Positions 19,071 to 43,868 are shown, counted from the stretch's first letter. The stretch is 64,000 bases of DNA from Candidatus Berkelbacteria bacterium (GCA_016187225.1 JACPKC010000004.1:17004-81003); one strand, 5' to 3'. The notes: generated by a model not told the origin, from the sequence alone. Program-made: numbers and translations.

Positions 19071-20045
19071 CTAACTTATAAAGATGCGAACATAGGCGGC
19101 GGCTGGCGCTTGCAAAGAATATCTGGGGAGAGAGGCAGGGATTAGAACAAAGGAGAGCGGGGCAAGTTCTAGAACGCCTGACTTGCTTTTTAGTTTAATT
19201 TTTTGAGTTAGCGACATAAGAATCTCAAAACTGTCCCTGGGATGATGTTGACGTTCGCCCTCCAGGCGCCAGCGTTCAAGCGTGAAGTAAGGGCAATCAA
19301 CCAGAATTTCTTGATTTTCATTTTTTAACGGTGCCTGGAGCTGGGGTTCGGTGTCGCTAAAATCAATTGATCGGAGCGCCTGCCTGACATGGAGCTCGCG
19401 CGGTTTATGTGTGCGTGGATCAAGGCGATTCCAATCGAAAACGCGGTAGGTGGTGTTGGAGTTTTGCTGAACTTCTAGAAGGAGACAGCCTGCGTCGATG
19501 ACGTGCAAGCGGCCGGATGGTAAAAACATACAATCGCCTGGCTTGACGGCCAGATGATGGAGTAAAGGCTCGAGCGTGCCTTGTTTAAGCGCGGTTTCAA
19601 ATTGAGATTGAGTCACGTTTTTCTTGAGACCGGCAAGAATGTGAGCATTTGAATTTGTCCCATCAAGCATCAGCCAACATTCAGTTTTTGGCTCGCTGGC
19701 TCCATCCGCTGTTGATTCTTCAGGCGGGTGAACTTGAAGCGAGAGCCGTGCCTCGGCGTCAAGGAGTTTAATCAGCAATGGGAATTTGCCATTCACCGGA
19801 GCGACCTTGCCCAAGAGCGCTTCGCCATACTCTTCCATAAGCTCGTGAAGATTTTTTCCGGCGAGTGGACCGCTTGCAACAATGCTGACTCGGTCATCTT
19901 CGGGTCGGTCGCTAACTTCCCAAACCTCGGCCAATGGCTGACCGCTTGCGTGAGGCTTGCCGAAAGCACGAAGTTTTTGCCCACCCCAGAGGTAGGCTTG
20001 CGTCATATTCTCGAGTCGAAAAGTGAGGGGATAAAGTGATCGCAT
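19071..20045 (-). CDS. manA: mannose-6-phosphate isomerase, type I
   Basis: YLWGG N-terminus, QVHP, and HVIDAGCLLLEVQQNSNTTYRVFDW cupin motifs. Length about 320 aa. Confidence 0.8.
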   Translation of the reverse strand: MRSLYPLTFRLENMTQAYLWGGQKLRAFGKPHASGQPLAEVWEVSDRPEDDRVSIVASGPLAGKNLHELMEEYGEALLGKVAPVNGKFPLLIKLLDAEARLSLQVHPPEESTADGASEPKTECWLMLDGTNSNAHILAGLKKNVTQSQFETALKQGTLEPLLHHLAVKPGDCMFLPSGRLHVIDAGCLLLEVQQNSNTTYRVFDWNRLDPRTHKPRELHVRQALRSIDFSDTEPQLQAPLKNENQEILVDCPYFTLERWRLEGERQHHPRDSFEILMSLTQKIKLKSKSGVLELAPLSFVLIPASLPRYSLQAPAAAYVRIFIS

Positions 20046-20065
20046 CTTTCAATAATTATAGCAAG

Positions 20066-20109
20066 AAAAAGGACCAGACTACCGAGGGGGAATTATTGTA
20101 GCCTGGTCC
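20066..20109 (-). terminator. intrinsic terminator-like hairpin oriented on the minus strand, 20 nt upstream of the manA ATG
   Basis: On the minus strand a 10-bp stem (GGACCAGGCU/AGUCUGGUCC) is followed by UUUUU. Confidence 0.5.
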
Positions 20110-20340
20110 TGTGAGAAACTTTAGTTCTTGGAGCCGTTGGCCAGCTCCCGAACTATTTCCTCGAACCCTTTCGGCATGCGCAGAAAGGGTTCGAGGTGGA
20201 TGAGTTTACTGCCGCGTGTGCCAACGCGACAGTCGCGGCTCCTTTCGGGCGCGCCGGATACGATCGTCGCGGCGCTTGCCCCACCCGAAGCCGGGTCCGT
20301 TCGTGGGGACCTCTTTCCCAGAGGAGTTTCCACAAAAAAA
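20110..20340 (-). other. GC-rich, palindrome-dense structured element containing an RBS-led 77-aa ORF (20121..20354, minus)
   Basis: Roughly 65% GC against a roughly 50% background. All six frames are open. It holds a 14-bp perfect inverted repeat (20159-20196) and the palindrome CGCGACAGTCGCG. AAGGAGGAG lies 5 nt upstream of the minus-strand ATG. Confidence 0.4.
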
Positions 20341-20625
20341 TGAGAAAAATTCATTTATCTCCTCCTTGGAAAGTTCCGCCACGGTATGAAGACGAACCTG
20401 ATCGAGAGTTTCGTGTTGTTTCCTCTCGATCTGGTTCGACACAACCTTCTTTCTGATCAAGATTTTTCCTCCCTTTTATCTAAATTGAGAACGGCGGACC
20501 GTTCCCACGAACACGAATACTACACACTTTTTCCACAGTGGCAAGTCTCAAGCTATGTTAAACTGACATTTGTGCCTAAATGGGTGCAAACTTTTATCAA
20601 TATAAGCTTTCATAGAGGAGGGGGA

Positions 20626-23600
20626 ATGTTCAAACGTTTCTGGAGTGTACTGGCGCCGATCACACTGGTCGTGGCCATTGCGGTCCTCACTGTTGGTCCA
20701 AATAACGTGACGACGTTATTTGAGATCGACACCGCCAGAGCCGGCGATATCACAAGTCCAACGTGGACTCTTTCAGATACTACAGCGTCCGCCACGAATG
20801 TGACGTATACCCATACGTTCACGACCGAAACCGCGATCCCAATCAATACCGGTGGAGCTGAAATTTGGCTCAGCGTCCAGCCCGGAATGGAGCCGCCGCA
20901 ATTCACAAGTAGCACACTTGCAAGTGGTAGCACAGAGGGGTTTGCGGGGCAGGAAATCAATTTTTGGTCCGAGGGCAAGGGCGGGATGAGTATTTCGATT
21001 CACAATAAAGGGACAACGGCAATTCCGGCTGGTGAGATCACGCTTAAATTTAGCGGTGTCACTAACCCAAGTCGTGGCGGTGCGTTGCGAACTAATACTT
21101 ATACAAAAGATTCCTTTACTCCGCTCGACGGTCGCCAAGGGCCAGACAGTAATGGCGTGATCGCGATCGGTACGCAAAATGTCCAGGGAACGGTAACTGA
21201 AGCTTCGACCAGCGCTCCCGTCGCCAATTTCCCGCTTGAAATTCACGGTGAAAACGGGTTTTGGCAAGCAACAACTGCCACGAACGGCACTTATGGCTTT
21301 TATGGTGTGCCAGCTGGCAATTACATGCTTGAAATGAGTTACGCAATGGATCCAAATAGCAGTAACGCCTCCTCGATCTCGCAATATCTGCGTTTTGAGC
21401 AAATTCAAGTCACTGTCCCAGCCTCCGGCACAGTGACACAAAATATCTCTCTCCAAAAATCAAGCAAAGTCATTACTGGCGTTGTGAAATATTCAGATAC
21501 TGGCGCCGTGGTGGCCAATGCCAACGTCAATGCTTTTTCAAATGGCCCAGGCGGCTTTGCTTCTAGCCCAACAAACTCAAGTGGTGAATTTACCTTGCGA
21601 GTTGGCGGCGGCAACTACTATATTAATGTCATGCCGAACTTTTTCGGCGGTCCGGGCGGTCCAGGTAATCAATCACAAACGGGAAATGATTTTTTCCCAC
21701 GCGCGCCGCGCCAGGTCAGTTTTGTCCAGGCCGCATCAGTTGCTGAAACAATTGCAATGGGTGACGTTCTCGTCGATCGAGCCGATGCAACGGTAACCGG
21801 CAAACTTGAAAAACCGAATGGTAGCGGGGTTAATATGGGCGGCATGGGCGCAATGAATTTCCGCACTCACACTATGATCCCAATCATGGTCCAGCAAGAC
21901 GGCAATTTTTCATTTAAGGCCAAATCTGGCACCGGCACATGGGAGTTAAATTACTTTGATCCAGGCGCATCGGTTGCTATGCCACCAGATACACAGTTTA
22001 AGATCGATCCAGGCGCAAACAATCTCGGCACAATTAAAATGGTTGCGCTCGATAAAACCATTACCGTTAACGCCAAACGGATTGATGGCGGTAAAAACGA
22101 GGGCATTGCCAATATGCCAGTCATGACCTTTCAAATTAAACGACCGGGCCCGCCATTTATGAGCTTTACTGATTCAACTGGAACAGCGCAGATTAAGGTC
22201 CCGGCTGGCTTTGAAGGTCGGGTGATGGGCATTCCGGGTGGCAAAGGTGGCCCTGGCAAACGCGAGGGCGGTGAAGGTGATGGCGAAGAATTCGGTTGGC
22301 TCCAGATGTTTAACATTGCCGCGGCTTACGCCCAAGAAGGCCCGGGTGGTGGCTCCGCAGGTGGTTTTGATCAAGAAACTTCTCGTCTCTTCCCAGTTAC
22401 AGCGCCTCAACGCGCCAAAGCCGGCGATACCGTAACGCTTAACTTCGATCTGGCAGATAAAAGCGTAACGGTGCGGACGGTAGACAAAAATAATAACGCA
22501 GTTTCAGAAGGGGCCTTTGTTAATGCCCGGCCATTGGGCAGTGGTTTTACTGGCAAGGGCGGTGGTTTTGGTGGCTCGACATCCGGTGGAAGCGGCACAA
22601 TCTACACTACTAAAGGCGACTTTACTTTTAACACTTTTTTCCCACCGGATTCTAACTATATGGGAATTGCGAAAACTGTCACGGTCGGCGATAACGGCGC
22701 CACAGCCGATCTTTTAGCGGCAACCAAGACAGTGACAGTCACTGGTGAAGTTCGGGATGCTTCAAATAATAACGCGGTCGTTAAAGACGGTTCGCTCGGC
22801 ATTATGATCGGTCTCTTTGGCGAGAGTGGCTTCAGCGATGGCAAATACAACCCAGCCGATGGCACATATACGGCAAAGTTTGTGCCTGATACGAAATTCA
22901 GGATCGGTGTTGCCGCTGGCGATCCAGGTATGGTGCAAGAGGGTGGCTATATTCCTAACATTAGCCCTGTTGAACTTGAGGGCAATGACGGTGAGACTTT
23001 AACTCAACACGTTACCTTGGCAAAAGTTGATGCCAAGATTAAGGGCACAGTCAAAGATCAAAATGGAACAGCAATTAAAGGCGTTACAATTACCGCTGAT
23101 CCTGGTTTGGCTGAACTGATCGGCGAAGGCCCAGGCGGACCTGGTCCGGGCCCAGAAGAAGAGGGAATCGACTTTGGTTTCTCTGATGTAACCGAAGATG
23201 ATGGTAGCTACGAAATTGATGTGGCGGCGAATAAGTACAGCATGATTGTGAATGCGCGCAAGGAAGGTTTATTTGTCACGCAGAATGTGACCGTTGACAT
23301 TAAGGCGCGTGAGACGAAAGAAAATATTAACCTAAGTCTGCAAAAGGCTGATGCCAAGGCGACTGTTGAGGTCAATAATAAAGACAGTAACGATCTTGGC
23401 GGCGCCGAGGTGCAGATTTTTAATGATGAAGGTACGATTAATTTCTCGTCAACGGCGGGTAGCGATGGCAAAGTGACGATTGATCTGCCGGCCGGGACAT
23501 ACAACATTAAGGCCGGCAAAGATAGCCCAGAAGATAATGGCAAGGTTGAGGGTAGCGCCATTCAAAAAGTGATTATCGATAAAAACGAAACCGAAAGCAT

Positions 23601-24543
23601 GGTCTTCAAAACAGAAACGGATACCGGCGTCTTACCCGCTCCGGTTGTGCAGGAAATTAGTAGTAGTTCGCCGAGCACGGTCAGCCTCTCGAAGGGTGGC
23701 GATGAGAAAATTGCTTTGAATATTCCGGCTGGCGCCTTGAGTTCAAGTAGTTCGAGTAGTGATGAGAGTAGCGATTCAAGTAGTTCGAGTAGTGATCCAC
23801 TTCTATCGGTCACTCCGCTCGATAAAGAGCTTGTGCCAACCAAGGCTTTGGAGCCAATTGTCGGCATGAGCGTCGACGCGACTGACTCAAGCGGCAATGC
23901 AATTACCTCTCTCTCCGGTCAGGTATCCGGGTCGATTAAATACGATGCGAACAAACTTCCAACCGGCGTGAAAGAAGATAATTTGGAAGTTCGCTCTTTT
24001 AATGAAGATAGCGGAATTTGGGAACCAGTTATTTCGAGCGCAGTTGACAAAGCCTCCGATAAAGTAACGTTTTCAACTAACCACTTTACCGACTTCGCAA
24101 TTGTGGCCGCGACCGATACAACTGCACCATCAGCGCCGACAAATGTCGCCGCCGCTGACCTTGGGACAAGCGGTAAAGTTGCGCTTACCTGGACTAACCC
24201 GAGCGATTCTGATTTCAACCATATTAATATTTACCGCTCAACGACGTCTGGCACAGTTGGGAGTAAAATTGGTTCAACAACTGCCTCCAGCACAACACGT
24301 TATGAGGATAGTAGTCTGACAAATGGCACAAAATACTATTATGTAGCGCGGTCAGTTGATGCGACTGGCAATGAATCGGCGAACACGACGCAGGTTTCAG
24401 CGACACCCAGCGCTACGACCTTGCCACTCACTGGGCCAGTTGAGACATCGAATAACGGCTTACTCATGGTCGTGGCAGCATTCCTTGCCGCCCTGGCAGG
24501 CGTAGGTGCAGGTATTGCGCACAAGCAGTATGCGTCGGCCTAA
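20626..24543 (+). CDS. giant LPXTG-anchored cell-surface protein (Cna-B/carboxypeptidase-regulatory-like repeats, Gly-rich linkers, FN3 domain)
   Basis: ATG after a GGAGGGGG ribosome-binding site and a signal/TM segment (MFKRFWSVLAPITLVVAIAV). The C-terminus ends LPLTG, then a hydrophobic helix, then HKQYASA. An FN3-like segment is present (TWTNPSDSDFNHINIYRS). Confidence 0.8.
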   Translation: MFKRFWSVLAPITLVVAIAVLTVGPNNVTTLFEIDTARAGDITSPTWTLSDTTASATNVTYTHTFTTETAIPINTGGAEIWLSVQPGMEPPQFTSSTLASGSTEGFAGQEINFWSEGKGGMSISIHNKGTTAIPAGEITLKFSGVTNPSRGGALRTNTYTKDSFTPLDGRQGPDSNGVIAIGTQNVQGTVTEASTSAPVANFPLEIHGENGFWQATTATNGTYGFYGVPAGNYMLEMSYAMDPNSSNASSISQYLRFEQIQVTVPASGTVTQNISLQKSSKVITGVVKYSDTGAVVANANVNAFSNGPGGFASSPTNSSGEFTLRVGGGNYYINVMPNFFGGPGGPGNQSQTGNDFFPRAPRQVSFVQAASVAETIAMGDVLVDRADATVTGKLEKPNGSGVNMGGMGAMNFRTHTMIPIMVQQDGNFSFKAKSGTGTWELNYFDPGASVAMPPDTQFKIDPGANNLGTIKMVALDKTITVNAKRIDGGKNEGIANMPVMTFQIKRPGPPFMSFTDSTGTAQIKVPAGFEGRVMGIPGGKGGPGKREGGEGDGEEFGWLQMFNIAAAYAQEGPGGGSAGGFDQETSRLFPVTAPQRAKAGDTVTLNFDLADKSVTVRTVDKNNNAVSEGAFVNARPLGSGFTGKGGGFGGSTSGGSGTIYTTKGDFTFNTFFPPDSNYMGIAKTVTVGDNGATADLLAATKTVTVTGEVRDASNNNAVVKDGSLGIMIGLFGESGFSDGKYNPADGTYTAKFVPDTKFRIGVAAGDPGMVQEGGYIPNISPVELEGNDGETLTQHVTLAKVDAKIKGTVKDQNGTAIKGVTITADPGLAELIGEGPGGPGPGPEEEGIDFGFSDVTEDDGSYEIDVAANKYSMIVNARKEGLFVTQNVTVDIKARETKENINLSLQKADAKATVEVNNKDSNDLGGAEVQIFNDEGTINFSSTAGSDGKVTIDLPAGTYNIKAGKDSPEDNGKVEGSAIQKVIIDKNETESMVFKTETDTGVLPAPVVQEISSSSPSTVSLSKGGDEKIALNIPAGALSSSSSSSDESSDSSSSSSDPLLSVTPLDKELVPTKALEPIVGMSVDATDSSGNAITSLSGQVSGSIKYDANKLPTGVKEDNLEVRSFNEDSGIWEPVISSAVDKASDKVTFSTNHFTDFAIVAATDTTAPSAPTNVAAADLGTSGKVALTWTNPSDSDFNHINIYRSTTSGTVGSKIGSTTASSTTRYEDSSLTNGTKYYYVARSVDATGNESANTTQVSATPSATTLPLTGPVETSNNGLLMVVAAFLAALAGVGAGIAHKQYASA

Positions 24544-25126
24544 TGTCCCTGCCCTGCCCAGGGTAGCAAGTCTTCTCTTACTCCTAATTGTAATTGGTGG
24601 CGCGGTTGCGGGTGTTCAGGCTAAGAGCGCCCGTCCCGTCACCCCAGTCCAAGAGGTAGTTGCCGAAGAGACCGCTCTTGAGGTGCCACCCAAGAGCGAG
24701 AGTTACTCCCTCGTGATCGAAGAACTAAAATTGGACGTTCCAATTGTTGAAGATGTGCCCGGCACCGACGAGAAGGCTTATTTGGCGGCGCTTACACATG
24801 GCGTAGCTCACTATGCCGGCACACCCAAGCCTGGGCAAGCCGGCAACAGTTTTATTTTCGGCCATTCCGCCTACTTAAAAGGCGATAAAGGCGATTACAA
24901 CGAAGTTTTCAGAGAACTCAATAAATTAATTAAAGATGAAACCTTTATAGTCAAACACAACGACGAAGTTTTGAACTACAAAGTGTTTCGGAGCGAGGTC
25001 GTAGAAGCAAATGATTTTTCTATTCTTGATCAAACTGATCAAGAAATTGTAACCTTGATGACTTGTTGGCCGCCTGGCACAATCGAAAAACGTTGGGTGG
25101 TTCAGGCTGAACGAGTTAAGAGTTAA
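24530..25126 (+). CDS. sortase (transpeptidase)
   Basis: N-terminal TM anchor. Conserved His in FIFGHSAY, catalytic Cys in VTLMTCWPPGT, and Arg in RWVVQAERV. It overlaps the 3' end of the LPXTG gene. Confidence 0.75.
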   Translation: MRRPNVPALPRVASLLLLLIVIGGAVAGVQAKSARPVTPVQEVVAEETALEVPPKSESYSLVIEELKLDVPIVEDVPGTDEKAYLAALTHGVAHYAGTPKPGQAGNSFIFGHSAYLKGDKGDYNEVFRELNKLIKDETFIVKHNDEVLNYKVFRSEVVEANDFSILDQTDQEIVTLMTCWPPGTIEKRWVVQAERVKS

Positions 25127-25149
25127 TATTCCACTATTGAAAGGGCAAT

Positions 25150-26100
25150 ATGGGTCGAGTAATTATTATTGGCCTTGTGGTTATTTTACTTATTGTCGGA
25201 ACTGGTTGGTTGATTTTACGCGTTTTACCCCAGGCACAGCCTGAAACACAAGATTCAATTACTTCTCAAGTTTCAGAAAATGAAGATTTATGGGTTGAGC
25301 AGGAAGTAGCGGTCGCTGGCAAATACGCTGATGCCGATGTTGTGGATTTAGGCGATGGACGATTTCGCATGTACTATGCCATTGAACCAGAAGTGTCCGG
25401 CAATCAACTCGAGGTTTATTCAGCGCTTTCAGCCGATGGCATTACTTGGACACCGGAAGCTGGCGTGCGACGCACGCTGTCAACTTTTCCGGATGTTATG
25501 AAACTACCCGACAACACCTGGCGGATGTACTTTCAGAATAGCGGCGTTATTAAGAGCGCAATCTCGACCGATGGCCTCAAGTGGACTGATGAAGCGGGCA
25601 CGCGAGTCGATGCAGTGAATACACTCGGTTTAGCGCTTGAAAGTGTCGGCGCCTCGACCACGATTCTCGTTTCCGATGGCACGTATCTTATGGTTTATCG
25701 GGGCACAATTAACTCCTCATATAATTCACAAGTACCGAATAAAACTCAAGGTGTTTTACTTATCGCAACTTCAGCCGACGGTCTTGAATGGGAGAAGAAG
25801 GGCTTTGCGCTTGATACGCGCACGAACGTTTTTGAGGGCTGGGCTGATGGACCTGAATGGATCAATCGCGATGATGGTTCGCTCGGGCTTTATTTTTGGG
25901 GATACAAGGGTATTTACGAAAGCGCTTACTCAAATACTTTTGGCTCACCTGAACTCATCTATCGTGGACCAAATGTCGATCAAAAAGTGATGTATTCACC
26001 GAATCCACCTGGCGACCCGACACTTGCCAAGATTGGGAGCGCCTGGATGATGTACTATGGCCAACACGAAAAAGGCATTTATCGCGCTACTCTCAAGTAG
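25150..26100 (+). CDS. secreted glycoside-hydrolase-like five-bladed beta-propeller protein (GH43/32 superfamily-like)
   Basis: N-terminal TM. Repeated blade signatures FRMYYAIE, WRMYFQN, YLMVYRG and WMMYYG. Confidence 0.4.
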   Translation: MGRVIIIGLVVILLIVGTGWLILRVLPQAQPETQDSITSQVSENEDLWVEQEVAVAGKYADADVVDLGDGRFRMYYAIEPEVSGNQLEVYSALSADGITWTPEAGVRRTLSTFPDVMKLPDNTWRMYFQNSGVIKSAISTDGLKWTDEAGTRVDAVNTLGLALESVGASTTILVSDGTYLMVYRGTINSSYNSQVPNKTQGVLLIATSADGLEWEKKGFALDTRTNVFEGWADGPEWINRDDGSLGLYFWGYKGIYESAYSNTFGSPELIYRGPNVDQKVMYSPNPPGDPTLAKIGSAWMMYYGQHEKGIYRATLK

Positions 26101-26117
26101 TCAGCCTTCCCCTTCGT

Positions 26118-26807
26118 ATGGAATCCCAAAATTCATTCCATTTTCAGCAGGGGCGCTACATTAAAGACTTGGTTTTTGGTGCGAATGACGGTTTAATTAC
26201 AACTTTCGCGATCGTTGCGGGCGTGGCTGGCGCCGATCTGCCTATTTCGGTCGTTCTCATTCTCGGCTTTGCAAATCTTTTTGCTGACGGTTTTTCAATG
26301 GCGGCCGGCGATTATTTAGGGAGTCGTTCCGAGCTTGATTTTGTGCAAAGTGAGCGAGCTGATTTAGAAAAGGCTATCCTTAAGACTCCCAGCGAGGCCA
26401 AAAAAGCGCTCTCGGAGTATTATTATTCGCAAGGATTTCGGGATTCTGTGTTAACTGAATTAACACGGATCGTGAGTAGCCATCGCCGAGCCTGGGTCGA
26501 GGCGCTCGCTCGCGGTCGATTTCGATTGCCCGCTGAAGATGGTCAACCGTATAAGAACGCTGGAGCGATCTTTCTTGCGTTCATTTTAGTTGGCTCTTTG
26601 CCTCTTTTGCCCTTTATTCTGGCGTTACCGAATGCTTTTTTGACTTCCATTCTTGTCACGACTTTGACGCTTTTTGTGCTCGGCGCGCTCCGTACCAGGG
26701 TTACCCGACAAGATTGGTTTATGTCCGGGCTTGAGATGCTTGCTGTTGGCGCCCTTGCCGCCGGAGTTGCCTACGCTGTCGGCGCTCTCCTTGGCTCGAT
26801 TGCCTAA
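26118..26807 (+). CDS. VIT1/CCC1-family Fe/Mn transporter
   Basis: LVFGANDGLITTFAIVAGVAGA motif with C-terminal TM helices. Confidence 0.8.
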   Translation: MESQNSFHFQQGRYIKDLVFGANDGLITTFAIVAGVAGADLPISVVLILGFANLFADGFSMAAGDYLGSRSELDFVQSERADLEKAILKTPSEAKKALSEYYYSQGFRDSVLTELTRIVSSHRRAWVEALARGRFRLPAEDGQPYKNAGAIFLAFILVGSLPLLPFILALPNAFLTSILVTTLTLFVLGALRTRVTRQDWFMSGLEMLAVGALAAGVAYAVGALLGSIA

Positions 26808-26826
26808 AACTCTTCAATTCGTTTAT

Positions 26827-28311
26827 TTATAGTTCTAAAAGTTGCTCGTAAATCCGAACCATCGCGAGCGTGTCGAGTTCACAGTAGTGCAGGAGGTCTT
26901 TCTTAATCTGTTCGCGCCGATCTGCGTATTTGCCATTGAGCACAGTTTCCATCCAAAGCCGTTGCGCCGTTTGCCCTTCTTGGATATTGAGTGTCGCATA
27001 GCTCAACTTCGGCACAAGTACCGGTAAGATTTTTTTGATACTTGCACTTCCAAAAAAACGGTAGTCTTCATACCAGTGCGCCGAGAACGGTAGCATAAGG
27101 TCGATAATTCGGGTATTGAGTGATTTCATAAACGCCCGGTGTTCCGGAAACATCTCACCAAGATCTAAGTTGCATTGCTTTTCGAATTTTTCATTCCAGA
27201 CGAGAATGGTACCAATTTCGCCGAAATCCTCTCGCAGCTGTGTCACAAGAGGCGGACCGGGATTCGTGGTATCGAAGTGAAGAAATTCTCGGTGCTCAAG
27301 CTCGCCATCGGGTTCGCGTAGGATGTGAAGAGAATACTCCATGGGGAGTTGCTGAAACGGGCGCATCTCGTTCATCGGCGGGATGATGCCGCCAATTGTT
27401 TCATAGTCAAAGAAGTAGAGTGGGAATTGGAATGACTTAAGAAATGTCCGAATCTGCTCGAGCTGGATGACTGGCTTCTCAAGTCTCGTCAGTTCCACTT
27501 GGCGGCGGTGTTTGGCATTGTCGAATTCAAAACGATCCGGAATATGCTTGATGAGTTCGATACCCTGATCCTCAAGTTCACCAATTAGGTCGTTGTTCGG
27601 TGGATTGATCTGATAGATATTATACGCGTCGGTGTTGAGTTTCAGGGTATAAAAAATCTCGAGCCACTCTTTAAGATATTGTTGTTGGGCATGACGAGGC
27701 GAAATGTCTGGCCGTTCAGATGATTTCATGACTGTCAGAGCCTGCTTGATTTTTTGTTCTGTTTCGGCGAGTTTGGCAGTTACCTTTTCGGTGAGTTCAA
27801 TAATTTGCGTGATCGCTTTCGCCTCGATATTGCCATGAAGGGTGTAGGTATTGTTCACAACAATTACCGAGATTTTCTCGATAGCCAGTCCAGCACGCTC
27901 GAGCACTATCTTTTGGAATGCCAGATCATCGATGTGTTCCGGCTTATCTTTTGTACTCGATTTGACTTCATAGAGATCGAACGTATTTTTGCCGGTTCGA
28001 TCGAGAATATCGAAGATGCAGGTTAGCTCATCCGCTTCGACGCGCCCTTGGAAGATAGTTTTAGCGTTATCGTTTAAAGTCGATTGCGTGCGAGCCGTGA
28101 GCGCCCGATATTCAGTGAACCCATTAAAACCGAGTTTTACACCCTCCGGAAACCGCGCCTCCGCATAGGCCTCGAACGCATGGCCGGCATCGAAAATTGC
28201 CTGAACGTTGGCGTCGATAGGAGGCAATTTTTCCGGATTGTGTTTTTTAAGCCACAGCCACGCCGGGTGCTTGAGAAACATCATGTAGTCGGATTTAGAA
28301 AGTTGCATCAT
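26827..28311 (-). CDS. DUF2779-like predicted dual nuclease (N-terminal PD-(D/E)XK, C-terminal DEDDh 3'-5' exonuclease)
   Basis: LSKSDYMMFLKHPAWLWL N-terminus and a D...DLYEVK PD-(D/E)XK-like motif. YFFDYETIGG (exo motif I) and HYCELDTLAMVRIY (exo motif III). Confidence 0.5.
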   Translation of the reverse strand: MMQLSKSDYMMFLKHPAWLWLKKHNPEKLPPIDANVQAIFDAGHAFEAYAEARFPEGVKLGFNGFTEYRALTARTQSTLNDNAKTIFQGRVEADELTCIFDILDRTGKNTFDLYEVKSSTKDKPEHIDDLAFQKIVLERAGLAIEKISVIVVNNTYTLHGNIEAKAITQIIELTEKVTAKLAETEQKIKQALTVMKSSERPDISPRHAQQQYLKEWLEIFYTLKLNTDAYNIYQINPPNNDLIGELEDQGIELIKHIPDRFEFDNAKHRRQVELTRLEKPVIQLEQIRTFLKSFQFPLYFFDYETIGGIIPPMNEMRPFQQLPMEYSLHILREPDGELEHREFLHFDTTNPGPPLVTQLREDFGEIGTILVWNEKFEKQCNLDLGEMFPEHRAFMKSLNTRIIDLMLPFSAHWYEDYRFFGSASIKKILPVLVPKLSYATLNIQEGQTAQRLWMETVLNGKYADRREQIKKDLLHYCELDTLAMVRIYEQLLEL

Positions 28312-35023: not shown

Positions 35024-37519
35024 TTACCAACGGCCGCCGCGGTCATTCCGTCTGTTTTTTTTGGGTTCCGAAGGAGGAGGGGTCGAGTCGGCGGCATTTG
35101 TTTCAGGTTTTGAAATCCACCATTGGTAGCCATAATAGCCGCCAAAGCCGGCGGCCGCGGCGATGATAATAATAAGAAGAGTCACCCAGGTTCGGGTTGT
35201 GTCCGAAACCTTTTTTTCATCCGTGCCGCCTTTAATTTGGCCCGAGTCATCAGTCGGTTTTTCGCCTTCAGCTTGGCCACCGATTGGCGCAGGTTCTTCA
35301 GTTTCGGCTGGCGCCGTCGTCGGAGTTGGCGTGGCAGAAAGTTTTGCTGGTTGGGGTGTTGGCGTGGCAGTTGGCGCGCTGGTTGTAGTTGCAACTACAA
35401 AGTCGGCGATCGGTTGAGGTTTTCTAGGAGTGACAGTGACTGTTGTGTAGGCGCTTGAGTTTCTCACCGCATCAAGGCTGGCGAGGCCAATTTCATAAGT
35501 CATGTCGTTGAGTAAGCCTTTGAGCGTCAGCTGGGTAAAGTCGCCGCCCGAGAGAAAGAGGGTGGTGTATTCGGTTTGATTCGAAGCGCGATAACGCAGA
35601 TTGTAACCAATTGCCTCCGGCACCGCATTCCAGTTCAGCATCGCCTGTCCATCGCTCTGCTCAACACGTGTAAATGTTGGCAAGGCAGGCGCCGCAATAT
35701 CGGCTGAACCAGTAACGTTGTCCAAAGTTTCGGCACGCGCATAAAGAAAGCCCGCGTAATTCACACCTTCTAATGTAATATCGGTTGCGTTGACACCAGT
35801 GCTTGCATAGAGATCCCAACGTTTTTCCGTCTCATTATAGAAACGGATGCCTTCCAGTTGCGTTTCGGTTGTAATGCCGGCGGCAGTGAGATCGGCTTGA
35901 GTGTAGAAAAGACGAATTTCAAGTGGTAAAGCGCTCGAATCACTTGAGCTTAAAGTTGCAATTCGACCAACGCGAATTTTGCCTATTGGTAATTCAACGC
36001 CAGTTGGATTCATCGCATCGTGATCGTGCACGCCCAAAATTGCTTCAGTTACACTGGGAGCGGCGATGAGAAGCAGTTGCGAAGGAACAAGAAAGTTTGC
36101 CAATCGATTTGCGCTTGTTACCGTCTGTTCGGTCAAAGCACTGTCATTAATCTCAACATCTATCTGGTCACCTTGGCTATCTTCATTGAGCGCCTCGTCG
36201 AGTGAGCGGACAATAAATTTGTGCTCACCGTTAGCAAAGATGTCGGTCGTGTAAGCCATCGTCAAAGAATCAACGGTCGTGAGAAGTGTATCTTCACCAT
36301 TTGAATGATGGTAAATCCGGTAACTTGCCACGTCACTTGATTCGGAAGGCAACCAGGTCAGTAGTACCATGCCGCGGTGAGTCGCGGCTTGCGTCTGCTG
36401 GGGTGGATTCGGCACAACCGTATCTTTGATAACCTCTGTCCGGGTAGCTTGACTGGATCGGTTTCCGAATTGATCCCAAACCCAAGCGCTTAATGTAAGT
36501 GGACCATCGGCAAGTAAATGCGCATCGAGCGTTAAAGTTGCTCCAGGCAAACCAGTGGCTGTCACTTCTCGCTCATTATCAGCGAGCGCAACTTCAATGG
36601 TTCTCACTAAACTTGGATCAGCCAGTGGAACCTCGATGACAACCGCAGTTTCATTCGCGCGATTCACTGTATTGGCTGGGTTTGTTTCGGTGGCGATAAT
36701 AGCGGACTGATTCGAAGCCAGAATGCTCATAGTTTGCTTGATGGCGCTGAATTGCGTCCACGCGCTCATAATTCCGGCATGTTCAGTATAGCCCTGGAGT
36801 GTGATCGCGCCGTCGACAAGGGTTTGAGCATCGATTTTTGCAAGAGTGGCGCTTGCAATCTGCTCATCGCGAGTCGAGGCGAGAGGGGTTAGATTGCCCA
36901 AACTGTCGACAATAGACGCGTTCAAGCTGGCGCTTCCTTCAAATGCGCCGAGCAAGGTGACCTCGTTCACATTGGCGCTAGTGATTACGTTTTCAGGTGT
37001 CTGATCGGTGGCGGCGACAATTAAACTCGCTAAAGTGTTTGGCGCCTCAATTATTGCGGTTGCGTTTGTTGCCGCTTCGGTCTCATCGACATTCGAAACC
37101 CAACGACCGGTGCCATCGATGGTCCGGGCGATTGAGTCACTCAAAGATGGAGCAGGTATGGTCGCAGCCAGTGAATCACCCCACGCGAGTGTTTCAACAG
37201 TAATATCCGCTTGATTTAGCTTGACCCAATCTTCACTGCGCTCAAGGGATTCAGGTAACTCAACTGCCAAATAACTCCCAGCATTCAAATTATCATTTCC
37301 GAGCAGGAGTGAAGAGCTCGACGAGCTAATACTCCAACTCGAAAGATTGATTGGCGCCGTTGATGGATTAAAAATTTCAACCCAGTCATGCGTCGGTGAA
37401 ACTTCATTGATGACGAGCCGATTTTCAGCGCCTGGCTCCGTGGCCAAAGCAAAATTCGGTGGCAAAAACTGCACGCATAAAGTCACAAGCAAACAACGCG
37501 CGACCCAAATCTTCCACAT
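35024..37519 (-). CDS. surface protein with a lamin-tail domain, FN3 repeats, a Pro/Thr-rich stalk and a C-terminal TM anchor
   Basis: ATG with an AGGAGG ribosome-binding site and a signal peptide. Lamin-tail domain (LVINEVSPTHDWVEIFNPS...LSSWSIS) and FN3 segments (LLTWLPSESSDVASYRIY, AMLNWNAVPEAIGYNLRY). A C-terminal TM is followed by a basic tail. Confidence 0.6.
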   Translation of the reverse strand: MWKIWVARCLLVTLCVQFLPPNFALATEPGAENRLVINEVSPTHDWVEIFNPSTAPINLSSWSISSSSSSLLLGNDNLNAGSYLAVELPESLERSEDWVKLNQADITVETLAWGDSLAATIPAPSLSDSIARTIDGTGRWVSNVDETEAATNATAIIEAPNTLASLIVAATDQTPENVITSANVNEVTLLGAFEGSASLNASIVDSLGNLTPLASTRDEQIASATLAKIDAQTLVDGAITLQGYTEHAGIMSAWTQFSAIKQTMSILASNQSAIIATETNPANTVNRANETAVVIEVPLADPSLVRTIEVALADNEREVTATGLPGATLTLDAHLLADGPLTLSAWVWDQFGNRSSQATRTEVIKDTVVPNPPQQTQAATHRGMVLLTWLPSESSDVASYRIYHHSNGEDTLLTTVDSLTMAYTTDIFANGEHKFIVRSLDEALNEDSQGDQIDVEINDSALTEQTVTSANRLANFLVPSQLLLIAAPSVTEAILGVHDHDAMNPTGVELPIGKIRVGRIATLSSSDSSALPLEIRLFYTQADLTAAGITTETQLEGIRFYNETEKRWDLYASTGVNATDITLEGVNYAGFLYARAETLDNVTGSADIAAPALPTFTRVEQSDGQAMLNWNAVPEAIGYNLRYRASNQTEYTTLFLSGGDFTQLTLKGLLNDMTYEIGLASLDAVRNSSAYTTVTVTPRKPQPIADFVVATTTSAPTATPTPQPAKLSATPTPTTAPAETEEPAPIGGQAEGEKPTDDSGQIKGGTDEKKVSDTTRTWVTLLIIIIAAAAGFGGYYGYQWWISKPETNAADSTPPPSEPKKNRRNDRGGRW

Positions 37520-37653
37520 ATTTCCTCCTCGTTCGTAGTTGAAATGGCTACTTCTTACGTAGCCAGGGTCGAGGAGGCATGTCAAGTGGAAAATTCATTA
37601 TACATTTTGCGTTCGTACAGAAAATGTTTTTTACGAGTTTAAATTTAGAAAAC

Positions 37654-38464: not shown

Positions 38465-38540
38465 AGGCCCGTAGCTTAGTGGTTAGAGCAGTCGGCTTAT
38501 ATCCGACCGGTCACAGGTTCGAATCCTGTCGGGCCTACCA
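38465..38540 (+). tRNA. tRNA-Ile (anticodon UAU)
   Basis: A 76-nt canonical cloverleaf. Acceptor AGGCCCG/CGGGCCU with A73 and CCA, anticodon stem GUCGG/CCGAC, loop CUUAUAU, and a TTCGAAT T-loop. Confidence 0.75.
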
Positions 38541-41761: not shown

Positions 41762-42016
41762 ATGGCTCAAGCGCCAATTCAACTGCGTGCCGTCGTCGAC
41801 CGATTTGAGGGCCATAAAGGAGTTTTACTCTTTGATGACGCTGATCTTCTCGGCCCGCTTGCTGGTCAAGAATTGGTTTTGCCAAAACGTCTCTTGCCAA
41901 CTGGTTGCCGCGAGGGCGACGTGATTGTGTTTGATATGCTGACTGATCTTCAGGCTACCCAACATCGTGAGACCCTAGCGCGTCAAGTTCTTGAGGAAAT
42001 TTTGAATGGTCGATAA
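41762..42016 (+). CDS. DUF3006-like small protein
   Basis: An 84-aa protein. VDRFEGHKGVLLFDD...LPKRLLPTGCREGDVIVFD matches the DUF3006 pattern. It overlaps the start of the VanW gene by 11 nt. Confidence 0.45.
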   Translation: MAQAPIQLRAVVDRFEGHKGVLLFDDADLLGPLAGQELVLPKRLLPTGCREGDVIVFDMLTDLQATQHRETLARQVLEEILNGR

Positions 42017-43868
42017 AAATTCAATTTCGCGTCGCACACTCCGGCGCTGGATTGTTGGAGGGATAAGCGCCTTACTAGGCGTTCTTGTTTTTGCAGGCGG
42101 AATCTATGGTTTCTATACGATTGCTTACGCCGATAGCATTTTTCCAAATACCTATGTCGGGCCAGTCAGTGTGGGCGCCGAATCGCTTGTCGAAGCCGAG
42201 ACAAGTATTACTCGCGCCGTTCAGGAATACCAAAAGACGTCTTTGAAATTTGCGATTGAGAATGAAGCTCTTTCTTTGGCGCTCGATGAGCTCTCGGTCA
42301 ATTACGATGCGCTGGAAAGCGCAACGCTAGCCTATGGCTTGGGGCGCACTGGTTCACTTTGGGAAAATCTGCTTATTCAAGTTGGCGGTTTAATTGAACC
42401 CAATACTCTTGAGCTTCGTTTGACTTATAATGAGGAAAATCTCAATGATTTTCTTGAGCTCCAAAGTACTAAATTTGATGAGCCAGAACAGAATGCCACG
42501 ATTGCTTATATTGATGGCGAGGTGAACGTGGTGCCGGAAATGAGTGGTCAGCGCTTCGATCAGGATCGTCTGCGCGCTGAAATCATCGCGAGTCTTAAAA
42601 CCTTGACCCCGCTTCAAACCGCTGTTTACGAACTTCGGCCTTCAACTCCAACTGTCACGGCTGATCAAGTCAAGGCGCTTTTGCCAATGATCGAGCGGGT
42701 TGCGACTCAACCACTGACTTTAGTCGCCGAAGGCAAAAACTATAAAGTCTCGCCGGAACAGTTAAGCGAGTGGCTCGCGATCAGCAAAGAATCAAACCAA
42801 ACGCCGACAGTTGAAGGATTTTTTGAAACCAACAGCACGGTGATGGTCGGTTTCGATCAGGAGAAAATTCAAGGCTATCTTAAAACTATTGCCACTGAAA
42901 TTAATCAAGACCCTGTTGATGCGCGCCTGACAATTAAAGATGGCCGTGCGAGCGTTTTTCAAACAAGCAAAGATGGCAAAGCGTTAGATTTGGAGAAGGC
43001 GTCGGCCGAAATTATTCAACTTCTCGAAGTGCGCTATCGCAATGCTCGAACGCGCGCTGACGCCAAGGCGGAAACACTCACCCTGCCTGTTAAACTGACG
43101 AAGCCAATTGTTAATTCGAGCACAGTTGATGATTTAGGGATTAAGGAGCTGATTGGCAAAGGCACAACCGATTTTTCCGGCTCACCAAATAATCGAGTGC
43201 ATAATTTGGCAAATGGCACCAAGTTTTTAAGCGGCATTCTTGTTAAACCAGGTGAGGAGTTTTCAACTGTTAAAGCACTGGGCGCCGTCGACGCCTCGAC
43301 GGGTTATTTGCCGGAGCTCGTCATCAAAGAGAATCGGACAATCCCGGAATATGGCGGTGGATTATGTCAGGTCTCAACAACCCTTTTTCGGGCGATTCTA
43401 GACGCTGGCTTGAAGGTGACGGAGCGGAAGGCTCATTCATACCGGGTTAGTTATTATGAGCGGAATGTCGGACCTGGGCTTGATGCAACGGTTTATCTGC
43501 CCAAACCCGATCTCAAATTTTTAAATGACACACCCGGTTGGATTCTGGTTCAAGGTTATGTCACCGATAAAGAGCTGACTTTCGAACTCTATGGCACTTC
43601 CGACGGCCGCACCGCCAAGATTGATGGTCCCCAAACTTTGTCGCGGACACCACCACCAGCTGATGTTTATGAAACTTCGAGCAGTTTGGCGCCTGGCGAG
43701 GTCAAGCAAATTGAAAAACCGCATGAAGGCGCTCGCACCACGGCCACGTATACCGTGATGCGCAATGGAGAAGTGATCAACAGTCAAACTTTTACTTCCA
43801 GTTACAAGGCTCTGCCGGCGCGTTTTCTCAAAGGGCCGGATCAGCCAACTGATCAGCCGTCAAACTAA
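42006..43868 (+). CDS. VanW-family protein with N-terminal TM
   Basis: YGGGLCQVSTTLFRAILDAGL (VanW core) with an upstream PG-binding-like region. Confidence 0.75.
   Translation: MVDKNSISRRTLRRWIVGGISALLGVLVFAGGIYGFYTIAYADSIFPNTYVGPVSVGAESLVEAETSITRAVQEYQKTSLKFAIENEALSLALDELSVNYDALESATLAYGLGRTGSLWENLLIQVGGLIEPNTLELRLTYNEENLNDFLELQSTKFDEPEQNATIAYIDGEVNVVPEMSGQRFDQDRLRAEIIASLKTLTPLQTAVYELRPSTPTVTADQVKALLPMIERVATQPLTLVAEGKNYKVSPEQLSEWLAISKESNQTPTVEGFFETNSTVMVGFDQEKIQGYLKTIATEINQDPVDARLTIKDGRASVFQTSKDGKALDLEKASAEIIQLLEVRYRNARTRADAKAETLTLPVKLTKPIVNSSTVDDLGIKELIGKGTTDFSGSPNNRVHNLANGTKFLSGILVKPGEEFSTVKALGAVDASTGYLPELVIKENRTIPEYGGGLCQVSTTLFRAILDAGLKVTERKAHSYRVSYYERNVGPGLDATVYLPKPDLKFLNDTPGWILVQGYVTDKELTFELYGTSDGRTAKIDGPQTLSRTPPPADVYETSSSLAPGEVKQIEKPHEGARTTATYTVMRNGEVINSQTFTSSYKALPARFLKGPDQPTDQPSN

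Follow-up and report, generated by a model that had tools for sequence, protein, structure and literature searches.

A predicted sortase-substrate gene cassette in a Candidatus Berkelbacteria genome

Introduction

In established sortase biochemistry, a cysteine attacks the Thr-Gly bond of the substrate and the acyl-enzyme is resolved by a lipid II-type amine. Here we describe a two-gene cassette, encoding a 1305-residue rod-like surface protein and its predicted sortase, in a stretch of 64,000 nucleotides (the window, from whose first letter all coordinates are counted) from Candidatus Berkelbacteria bacterium (GCA_016187225.1 JACPKC010000004.1:17004-81003). The organism is a tiny, uncultured groundwater member of the Candidate Phyla Radiation (CPR); the sortase is 100% identical to the NCBI entry 'sortase [Candidatus Berkelbacteria bacterium]', in agreement with an initial annotation of the locus, made from the sequence, that had suspected a CPR-like source.

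Several described systems resemble this one in part. Staphylococcus aureus SrtA with its MSCRAMM substrates of the SdrD/Cna type shares the N-terminal signal, the C-terminal LPXTG with hydrophobic helix and tail, and a substrate of tandem CnaB/prealbumin-like domains, and the window enzyme appears by its residues to be the same membrane-anchored type of Cys transpeptidase with His/Cys/Arg and TLxTC. It differs in reaching no class threshold, in having no class A match, and in its signature TLMTCWPPGT. The window genes form a one-to-one overlapping cassette, whereas the SrtA type is one sortase with many scattered substrates, and the window protein, from a CPR host, has neither the wall-spanning Pro/Ser-rich segment before LPXTG nor any Cys.

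Class C sortases with their CnaB pilins (SpaA, BcpA, RrgB, FimP) are alike in several respects: they are the best matches among solved sortases (2xwg, 2w1k, 8t28) and provide the top-scoring NCBIfam class model, their substrates have CnaB-type domains, and sortase and substrate genes adjoin. Unlike them, the window system has no lid, C-terminal anchor, pilin motif, E-box, minor pilins or second sortase, and its enzyme scores under half of the class cutoff. Dedicated pairs, in which a class GN 'marine' sortase (TIGR03784) accompanies a single target, likewise place one sortase beside one substrate in a conserved pairing, but the window sortase scores 33.8 against a cutoff of 158 bits for that model, and lineage, substrate architecture and gene order (substrate first in the window) all differ. 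Thioester, isopeptide and ester cross-links are the defining features of TIE proteins; that of Bacillus anthracis (6fwv) is, like the window protein, an LPXTG surface protein with several Ig-like domains, although sequence identity is just 10-15% and no thioester is possible in the window protein.

Within the CPR, sortases have been reported in more than half of genomes (Meheust et al. 2019, PMC6744442). The window enzyme resembles family fam000526 of that study in being of the CPR-wide sortase type, and the paper gives sortase presence and distribution only. A sortase is also noted in a Microgenomates genome paper (PMC7143001), and a cultivated CPR bacterium requires protein adhesins to grow epibiotically (PMC10633639). 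The papers searched and read on sortase in CPR, Patescibacteria, Saccharibacteria and Berkelbacteria yielded mentions of presence only, and we found in them no account of a 1300-aa substrate family, of a cassette organization or of tail variants.

Results

The two genes overlap and are conserved as a pair

The cassette is probably a dedicated sortase-substrate system through which this CPR bacterium fixes a surface protein covalently to its cell wall. Its genes are as follows.

20615..20624, + strand: Shine-Dalgarno-like run GAGGAGGGGG, read in the sequence, just 5' of ATG 20626
20626..24543, + strand: surface-protein gene, 1305 aa, identical to NCBI hypothetical protein HYW32_00875 of the same organism
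24530..25126, + strand: sortase gene, 198 aa from ATG 24530 (NCBI call)

The first gene lies in a frame that is open from 20386 to 24543 (+), and the in-frame ATG at 20626 gives the 1305-aa product. We prefer this start to the upstream ATG at 20386 because of the GAGGAGGGGG run, the call made in two public assemblies, and the alignment of ortholog N-termini at this position. The sortase gene overlaps it by 14 nt when read from ATG 24530, as initially annotated, or by 38 nt from an alternative GTG at 24506 that yields 206 aa (Logan call). A scan of 19900-26900 for sigma-70 promoters and intrinsic terminators gave counts no higher than in shuffles, and the operon boundaries are therefore set by the gene overlap only. 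Horizontal acquisition was considered and rejected, as the GC content of the locus (0.48-0.50) is like that of the remainder of the window.

A search of 5.8 billion proteins for relatives of the surface protein identified 19 collinear orthologs of ~1230-1360 aa and 31-64% identity, from Berkelbacteria and Patescibacteria metagenome-assembled genomes (MAGs). They align with few gaps and are fairly evenly conserved over their full length, including the N-terminal tip. HMMER comparison of residues 36-700 with 1.84 billion cluster representatives gave 16 clusters at E <= 1e-30, and by these searches the family is small and lineage-restricted. The initial annotation had named absence of the motif from orthologs as grounds for abandoning its reading; LPxTG is retained in 17 of the 19, most commonly as LPKTG and otherwise as LPLTG, LPVTG, LPATG, LPRTG or LPSTG.

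Every LPxTG-bearing family member whose locus was examined has a sortase gene directly downstream, usually overlapping, and the flanking genes differ (P0041 in L002/L003, P0055 in L004/L005 and P0038 in L006; also L007, L008, L009, L011, L012, L014, L015, L023 and L028). The family members without LPxTG are P0048 (43% identity, with a Lys/Ala-rich tail) and the distant P0057, and both have no sortase gene within 3-5 kb downstream or 6 kb upstream. Of the evidence available, this co-occurrence and joint loss of motif and enzyme argues most strongly for the surface protein as the target of the sortase. It also effectively refutes a coincidental adjacency of two functionally unlinked genes, to which we attach almost no probability: the genes overlap, the pair is kept in 13 or more loci whose flanks differ, and motif and sortase have disappeared together in P0048 and P0057. 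A separate arrangement is seen in one MAG (L012:1-7002), where a single sortase gene is preceded by two tandem genes of the surface-protein family, whose products both end in LPKTG and a helix.

The sortase fits no curated class

The second gene product matches Pfam PF04203 over the full length of the model (1-125/125) with an E-value of 1.7e-26 and 92.9 bits (cutoff 26.6), and it passes the general sortase model TIGR01076 (67.4 bits against 39.35). Its principal features are these.

24563-24613, + strand: sortase N-terminal membrane anchor, a hydrophobic stretch
24863-24865, + strand: sortase His112 (FGHS), catalytic by alignment
25064-25066, + strand: sortase Cys179 (TLMTCWP), catalytic by alignment
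25091-25093, + strand: sortase Arg188, catalytic by alignment

All three residues are unchanged throughout an alignment of 17 homologs with just 31-51% identity, and they align with catalytic residues of solved class C and class D sortases, in 2xwg with the LTGH, TLITC and HRLLV segments. The membrane-anchored sortase with a His, TLMTC-Cys and Arg triad described in the initial annotation is thus borne out by both Pfam and alignment, and the loss of Cys or His that it had considered as contrary evidence is not seen. The closest solved structures are of class C (2xwg, 2w1k, 8t28) and class D (4d70), with E-values from 3e-8 to 1e-6.

The class, for which C, E or another had been proposed for examination, does not emerge from the NCBIfam models, all of which score below cutoff: class C (NF033745) 71.9 bits of 160, class D 68-71 of 140-165, class E 48 of 160, class F 38 of 166 and class GN (TIGR03784) 33.8 of 158, with no class A match at E <= 0.01. 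Neither a DP[WFY] lid motif nor a C-terminal anchor is present, the sequence ending ...VVQAERVKS right after the catalytic domain. On these profile scores the enzyme is a member of the sortase superfamily that fails every class-level membership test run here.

Export and sorting signals of the surface protein

The surface protein has a signal at each end.

20626..20742, + strand: N-terminal export signal, consisting of MFKR, a hydrophobic core (residues 5-23) and a conserved A-x-A|G motif (ARA, residues 37-39), from sequence and ortholog alignment
24421..24540, + strand: cell-wall sorting signal, with LPLTG at 24421-24435, helix at 24460-24519 and tail at 24520-24540

The ARA may be a signal-peptidase site, judging from its sequence context; the gap between hydrophobic core and A-x-A is 14 residues, longer than usual. 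The C-terminus reads TT-LPLTG-PVETSNNG-LLMVVAAFLAALAGVGAGIA-HKQYASA followed by the stop codon, with an 8-residue spacer (PVETSNNG). LPLTG occupies residues 1266-1270 of 1305, within the limit of about 35 residues from the C-terminus used for such signals, and the 20-residue segment LLMVVAAFLAALAGVGAGIA has a maximum Kyte-Doolittle mean of 2.74 over 15 residues, as for a membrane-spanning helix. The 1305-aa protein ending in LPLTG and a hydrophobic helix is therefore present as first described. The LPLTG-type peptide SATTLPLTGPVE is a candidate sortase substrate. A check of the genome for further LPXTG substrates had been suggested; within the window, all six frames of the 64 kb contain one LPXTG-type C-terminal signal, that of the surface-protein ORF (open reading frame).

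A predicted rod of beta-sandwich domains

Between the two signals the protein is composed of consecutive domains.

20743..21180, + strand: N-terminal beta-sandwich domain, residues 40-185, model pLDDT (predicted local distance difference test) ~80-96, unclassified
21181..23625, + strand: about eight tandem CnaB/transthyretin-like (CarboxypepD_reg, SpaA) beta-sandwiches, residues 186-1000
23626..24120, + strand: beta-sandwich domain, residues 1001-1165, ending in a conserved H-F-T-D-F-A-I-V strand, unassigned
24121..24411, + strand: FN3 domain, residues 1166-1262, from Pfam, a seven-strand model, Foldseek and ortholog names

AlphaFold2 models built with the ortholog alignment are all-beta and confident, with pLDDT 81.3 for residues 36-700 and 81.8 for residues 690-1275. 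The repeats are CnaB/transthyretin-like, as the Ig-like or Cna-B-like domains first proposed would be, and Pfam concurs, with CarboxypepD_reg at E 1.1e-19 in four stretches and the SpaA prealbumin-like model above cutoff; above-cutoff models and fold agree on a CnaB/prealbumin-like assignment. Domains of this type start near residues 186, 283, 387, 476, 611, 700, 802 and 909, and the last six starts carry the motif [D/K/T][A/K][T/K][V/I]T[G/V]. Of the residues that could enter an intramolecular isopeptide triad (Lys, Asn/Asp, Glu/Asp), conserved lysines K281 and K800 are located in domain-start strands.

The N-terminal domain matches neither Pfam (E <= 0.1) nor any PDB sequence; it is here, in ATNVTYTHTFTT.TAIP, that conservation across the protein peaks. 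The 1001-1165 domain also has no Pfam match at E <= 0.1. The proposed FN3 domain has support: Pfam fn3 (PF00041) matches residues 1169-1254 with E 5.5e-5 and 23.7 bits, just under the 25-bit gathering cutoff, and the assignment is backed by the seven-strand model, by Foldseek matches to FN3 arrays, and by orthologs named FN3 domain-containing. It ends ~8 residues before LPLTG, and there is no wall-spanning low-complexity segment.

In Foldseek comparisons with the PDB the B. anthracis TIE protein (6fwv) is top for both halves, followed by PitA, SdrD, SpaC and many Gram-positive pilins, with FN3 arrays also matching the C-terminal half. As judged from the models, the protein is structurally closest to Gram-positive LPXTG adhesins and pilins and to CnaB/transthyretin-like domains. 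The absence of Cys from the surface protein excludes thioester domains and disulfides, and a thioester adhesin of the TIE type was ruled out for this reason.

Gly-rich loops

Gly-rich stretches occur at residues 341-352, 537-583, 637-657 and 828-850, each 26-104 residues past a domain start, with GPGGPG at residues 342 and 835.

21646..21681, + strand: Gly/Pro-rich loop 1 (GGPGGPGNQSQT), inside domain 283-386, pLDDT <50, of variable length in all orthologs
22234..22374, + strand: largest Gly-rich loop, residues 537-583, from ortholog alignment and model
22534..22596, + strand: Gly-rich loop 3, residues 637-657, inside domain 611-699
23107..23175, + strand: Gly/Pro-rich loop 4, residues 828-850, with GPGGPGPGP, inside domain 802-908, pLDDT 27

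These stretches had been taken for linkers between domains. In the models they are exactly the segments with low confidence, strands of one and the same domain lie on both sides, and essentially all orthologs keep them with varying length; by position, flanking strands and conservation they are intradomain loop insertions and not linkers. Similarly, what had been read as a Ser/Asp low-complexity stalk, SSSSSSSDESSDSSSSSSD (residues 1039-1057; 23740-23796), is a low-confidence loop of 19 residues inside the 1001-1165 domain.

The largest loop contains a conserved amphipathic helix (residues 555-572; 22288-22341) ending A-x-A-Q (EFGWLQMFNIAAAYAQEG; FGWLQMFNIAAAYAQE) that is present in most orthologs; the model predicts helix at model residues 524-532 with low confidence. 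Its sequence is similar to that of a signal-peptide core followed by a signal-peptidase site.

Related CPR sortases and variant tails

A scan for the TCWP-type sortase pattern, with one genome per species, gave >600 matches, at least 558 of them confirmed. The confirmed matches are nearly all from the CPR (Berkelbacteria, Saccharibacteria, Gracilibacteria, Microgenomates groups, Moranbacteria and Nealsonbacteria), and by its sequence pattern the window sortase belongs to this CPR-wide "TCWP" family. Nine records with CPR-type TCWP sortase loci (L050, L053, L060, L066, L074, L075, L083, L084 and L085) are labelled 'uncultured Gammaproteobacteria' or 'Pseudomonadales'; these are probably taxonomic mislabels of MAGs. 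Among 80 CPR sortase loci an LPxTG protein lies directly upstream in 21 and within 7 kb in 18 more, where about one such neighbor is expected by chance (an estimate from residue frequencies).

The C-terminal signal varies within the surface-protein family. In about one third of orthologs (P0040, P0041, P0043, P0046, P0051, P0055, L011, L023) the helix and charged tail are replaced by an amphipathic tail of 18-30 residues, often ending NLF, SLF or NIF, as in GNWYLGWVNSLF; at the loci examined (P0041, P0055, L011 and L023) these orthologs keep the sortase. Other CPR LPxTG proteins that adjoin sortases have the same amphipathic tails, or only 1-4 residues past the motif. Loci with variant tails are listed here.

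L011:2845-6798
L023:2963-6850
L013:5409-6905
L072:5317-6804
L034:6011-6853
L035:3201-6728
L044:4279-6798

A different giant protein (~1560-2020 aa) with LPATG or LPSTG is encoded ~1 kb upstream of a CPR-type sortase in Microgenomates-like genomes (L041, L058, L060, L066, L070, L074, L075, L082, L084), with the conserved signal ...VLGAST(E/D)LP(A/S)TGA.... This may be a second conserved sortase-substrate pairing.

Discussion

A model for surface display

We propose that Sec would export the 1305-aa protein by way of its N-terminal signal, which would then be cleaved, and that the C-terminal hydrophobic helix would hold the protein in the membrane. The co-translated, membrane-anchored sortase would cut LPLTG between Thr and Gly, using Cys179 with His112 and Arg188, and the thioester would be resolved by the amino group of a peptidoglycan precursor (lipid II-type), giving a covalent link to a thin cell wall. 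Inside the window the peptidoglycan-related genes are those for GlmS and for a VanW protein with two PG_binding_4 domains (42006-43868, +), the latter a predicted and indirect pointer to a peptidoglycan wall; the mur genes lie outside the window. The mature product would be an outward rod, tens of nanometres long, of about eleven beta-sandwich domains, with the unique N-terminal domain outermost as its tip, then about eight CnaB/transthyretin-like domains, one unassigned domain, and FN3 beside the wall. Most likely the rod is a surface fibre by which the cell attaches to a host cell or a substrate, and it may be a core component of the envelope; an adhesin role is plausible, though adhesion and host attachment are inferences.

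Several observations weigh against this model. Cleavage and wall linkage are read here from the genes, and to our knowledge CPR envelopes are poorly characterized. As the sortase fits no curated class, specificity is not transferable to it from a characterized enzyme. The tail HKQYASA is short, as initially annotated, but weakly charged, with one Lys and one His where most orthologs have 2-5 Lys/Arg, and Pfam PF00746 (Gram_pos_anchor), with precomputed matches in two orthologs (P0039 and P0042), is not matched by the window protein at E <= 0.01. Membrane retention may not be obligatory in the family, because about a third of orthologs have amphipathic tails. Finally, the even conservation, tip included, is atypical of adhesins under host-driven diversification, and on the alignment a collinear surface fibre belonging to the core of the lineage would explain it no less well than a fast-evolving adhesin would.

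Alternative explanations

That evenness makes an envelope or structural role a serious alternative for function, in which the protein is sortase-anchored without being an adhesin and serves as a lineage-core component, a spacer or a surface-layer (S-layer)-like fibre that forms or supports the outer surface. Orthologs are collinear and of near-fixed length (~1230-1360 aa), with conservation that takes in both the tip and the Gly-rich loops; there is a single copy of the gene, among housekeeping genes, in every genome; and the family is small and lineage-restricted. The top structural matches, however, are adhesins and pilins rather than S-layer proteins, no lattice-forming or SLH-type domain was found, and the family is not in all Berkelbacteria, the sortase locus of the complete genome CP011213 (L034) being without it. 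We judge this role possible, though clearly less probable than not. A pilus, assembled by class C-like head-to-tail polymerization through a Lys side chain or an N-terminal Gly exposed by signal cleavage, has in its favor that the nearest curated model and the nearest solved structures are class C, that the substrate is built of CnaB-type domains as pilins are, and that the Gly right after the conserved A-x-A would provide such an N-terminus. Against this, the class C model gives 72 bits for a cutoff of 160, the enzyme is without DP[WFY] lid or C-terminal anchor, neither a YPKN-type pilin motif nor an E-box turned up when the 1305-aa protein was scanned with regular expressions, the subunit far exceeds known pilins in size, and the cassette has one sortase and one substrate gene with no housekeeping sortase or minor pilins nearby. 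A pilus is thus very unlikely, and of the Gram-positive-type wall-anchored adhesin or pilus-like system initially annotated it is the pairing of a sortase with an LPXTG substrate that stands, while the pilus does not.

It is also quite improbable that the sortase serves mainly to process or release the protein as a protease, or that it hands it to an acceptor other than peptidoglycan, such as a lipid or glycan. The short amphipathic or 1-4 residue tails of several orthologs and of other CPR LPxTG proteins beside sortases would suit such an activity, as would the undefined class of the enzyme, but the window protein itself has a canonical hydrophobic helix, all characterized sortases that we know of are transpeptidases, and peptidoglycan-related genes are present in the window. 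The tail variants, the A-x-A-Q helix and the distant N-terminal A-x-A|G are features by which CPR sorting could depart from the textbook pathway; they leave the verdict for this window, a probable wall-anchoring sortase-substrate cassette, unchanged. A more speculative and rather unlikely proposal is that CPR 'TCWP' sortases form a distinct class, in one-to-one cassettes with lineage-specific giant substrates, which can process substrates having no transmembrane retention signal (short amphipathic '...NLF' tails or 1-4 residues past LPxTG), implying a hand-over unlike the Gram-positive paradigm; the Berkelbacteria 1300-aa protein would then be the principal host-contact fibre, and the Gly-rich loops and A-x-A-Q helix would take part in a further step, for example a second cleavage or an insertion into the membrane.

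Neighboring genes and other features

Other genes in the window have housekeeping functions, encoding GlmS, transketolase, aldolase, FtsH, H+-PPase, CTP synthase, GroEL and a TrpRS/TyrRS-type synthetase. An ORF at 25150-26100 (316 aa, with an N-terminal membrane anchor) starts 24 nt past the sortase stop codon; it was rejected as a third cassette member since it is not kept beside the cassette in other genomes. It has no match in Pfam or PDB sequences, and an NCBIfam beta-mannosidase match was discarded (E 0.008, 15 bits against 550). An 853-aa protein with a lamin-tail domain (35024-37585, -) may be a further surface protein.

Between the mannose-6-phosphate isomerase gene and the surface-protein gene there is a GC-rich patch (20050-20360, -), with 69% GC at 20200-20299 compared with ~48% for the window. 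Its minus strand folds at -140.6 kcal/mol (z = -6.9 against shuffles) into a multi-hairpin domain with a long-range closing helix, and is followed by a perfect 13-bp hairpin and U-run (~20058-20110) that is intrinsic-terminator-like. The patch has no Rfam match and no nhmmer match in 85 other loci, and a 77-aa ORF without Pfam matches is called within it in one assembly; it is a candidate for an unclassified structured RNA or a small gene. Rfam reports tRNAs only across the window, with no match in the intergenic region upstream of the surface-protein gene. One of these is a tRNA-Ile with a UAU anticodon (38465-38540; ARAGORN, with Rfam confirming a tRNA), an uncommon bacterial means of reading AUA.

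Significance

The cassette is a real and essentially ordinary Gram-positive-type sorting system in an unusual lineage. Part of this was already known, in that GenBank annotates the enzyme as a sortase and CPR sortases have been published, and the general understanding of sortases is unchanged. A divergent sortase could be of practical interest for protein ligation. The Gram-positive sorting pathway is present, at least genetically, in Berkelbacteria, in a minimal form of one enzyme and one substrate. CPR bacteria (Patescibacteria) are thought to live attached to other cells, and the surface molecules of most of their lineages are little known; for Berkelbacteria the cassette provides a concrete candidate, a rod predicted to be covalently wall-anchored, whose approximately eleven domains include a conserved and unclassified one at the tip and which has a sortase of its own.

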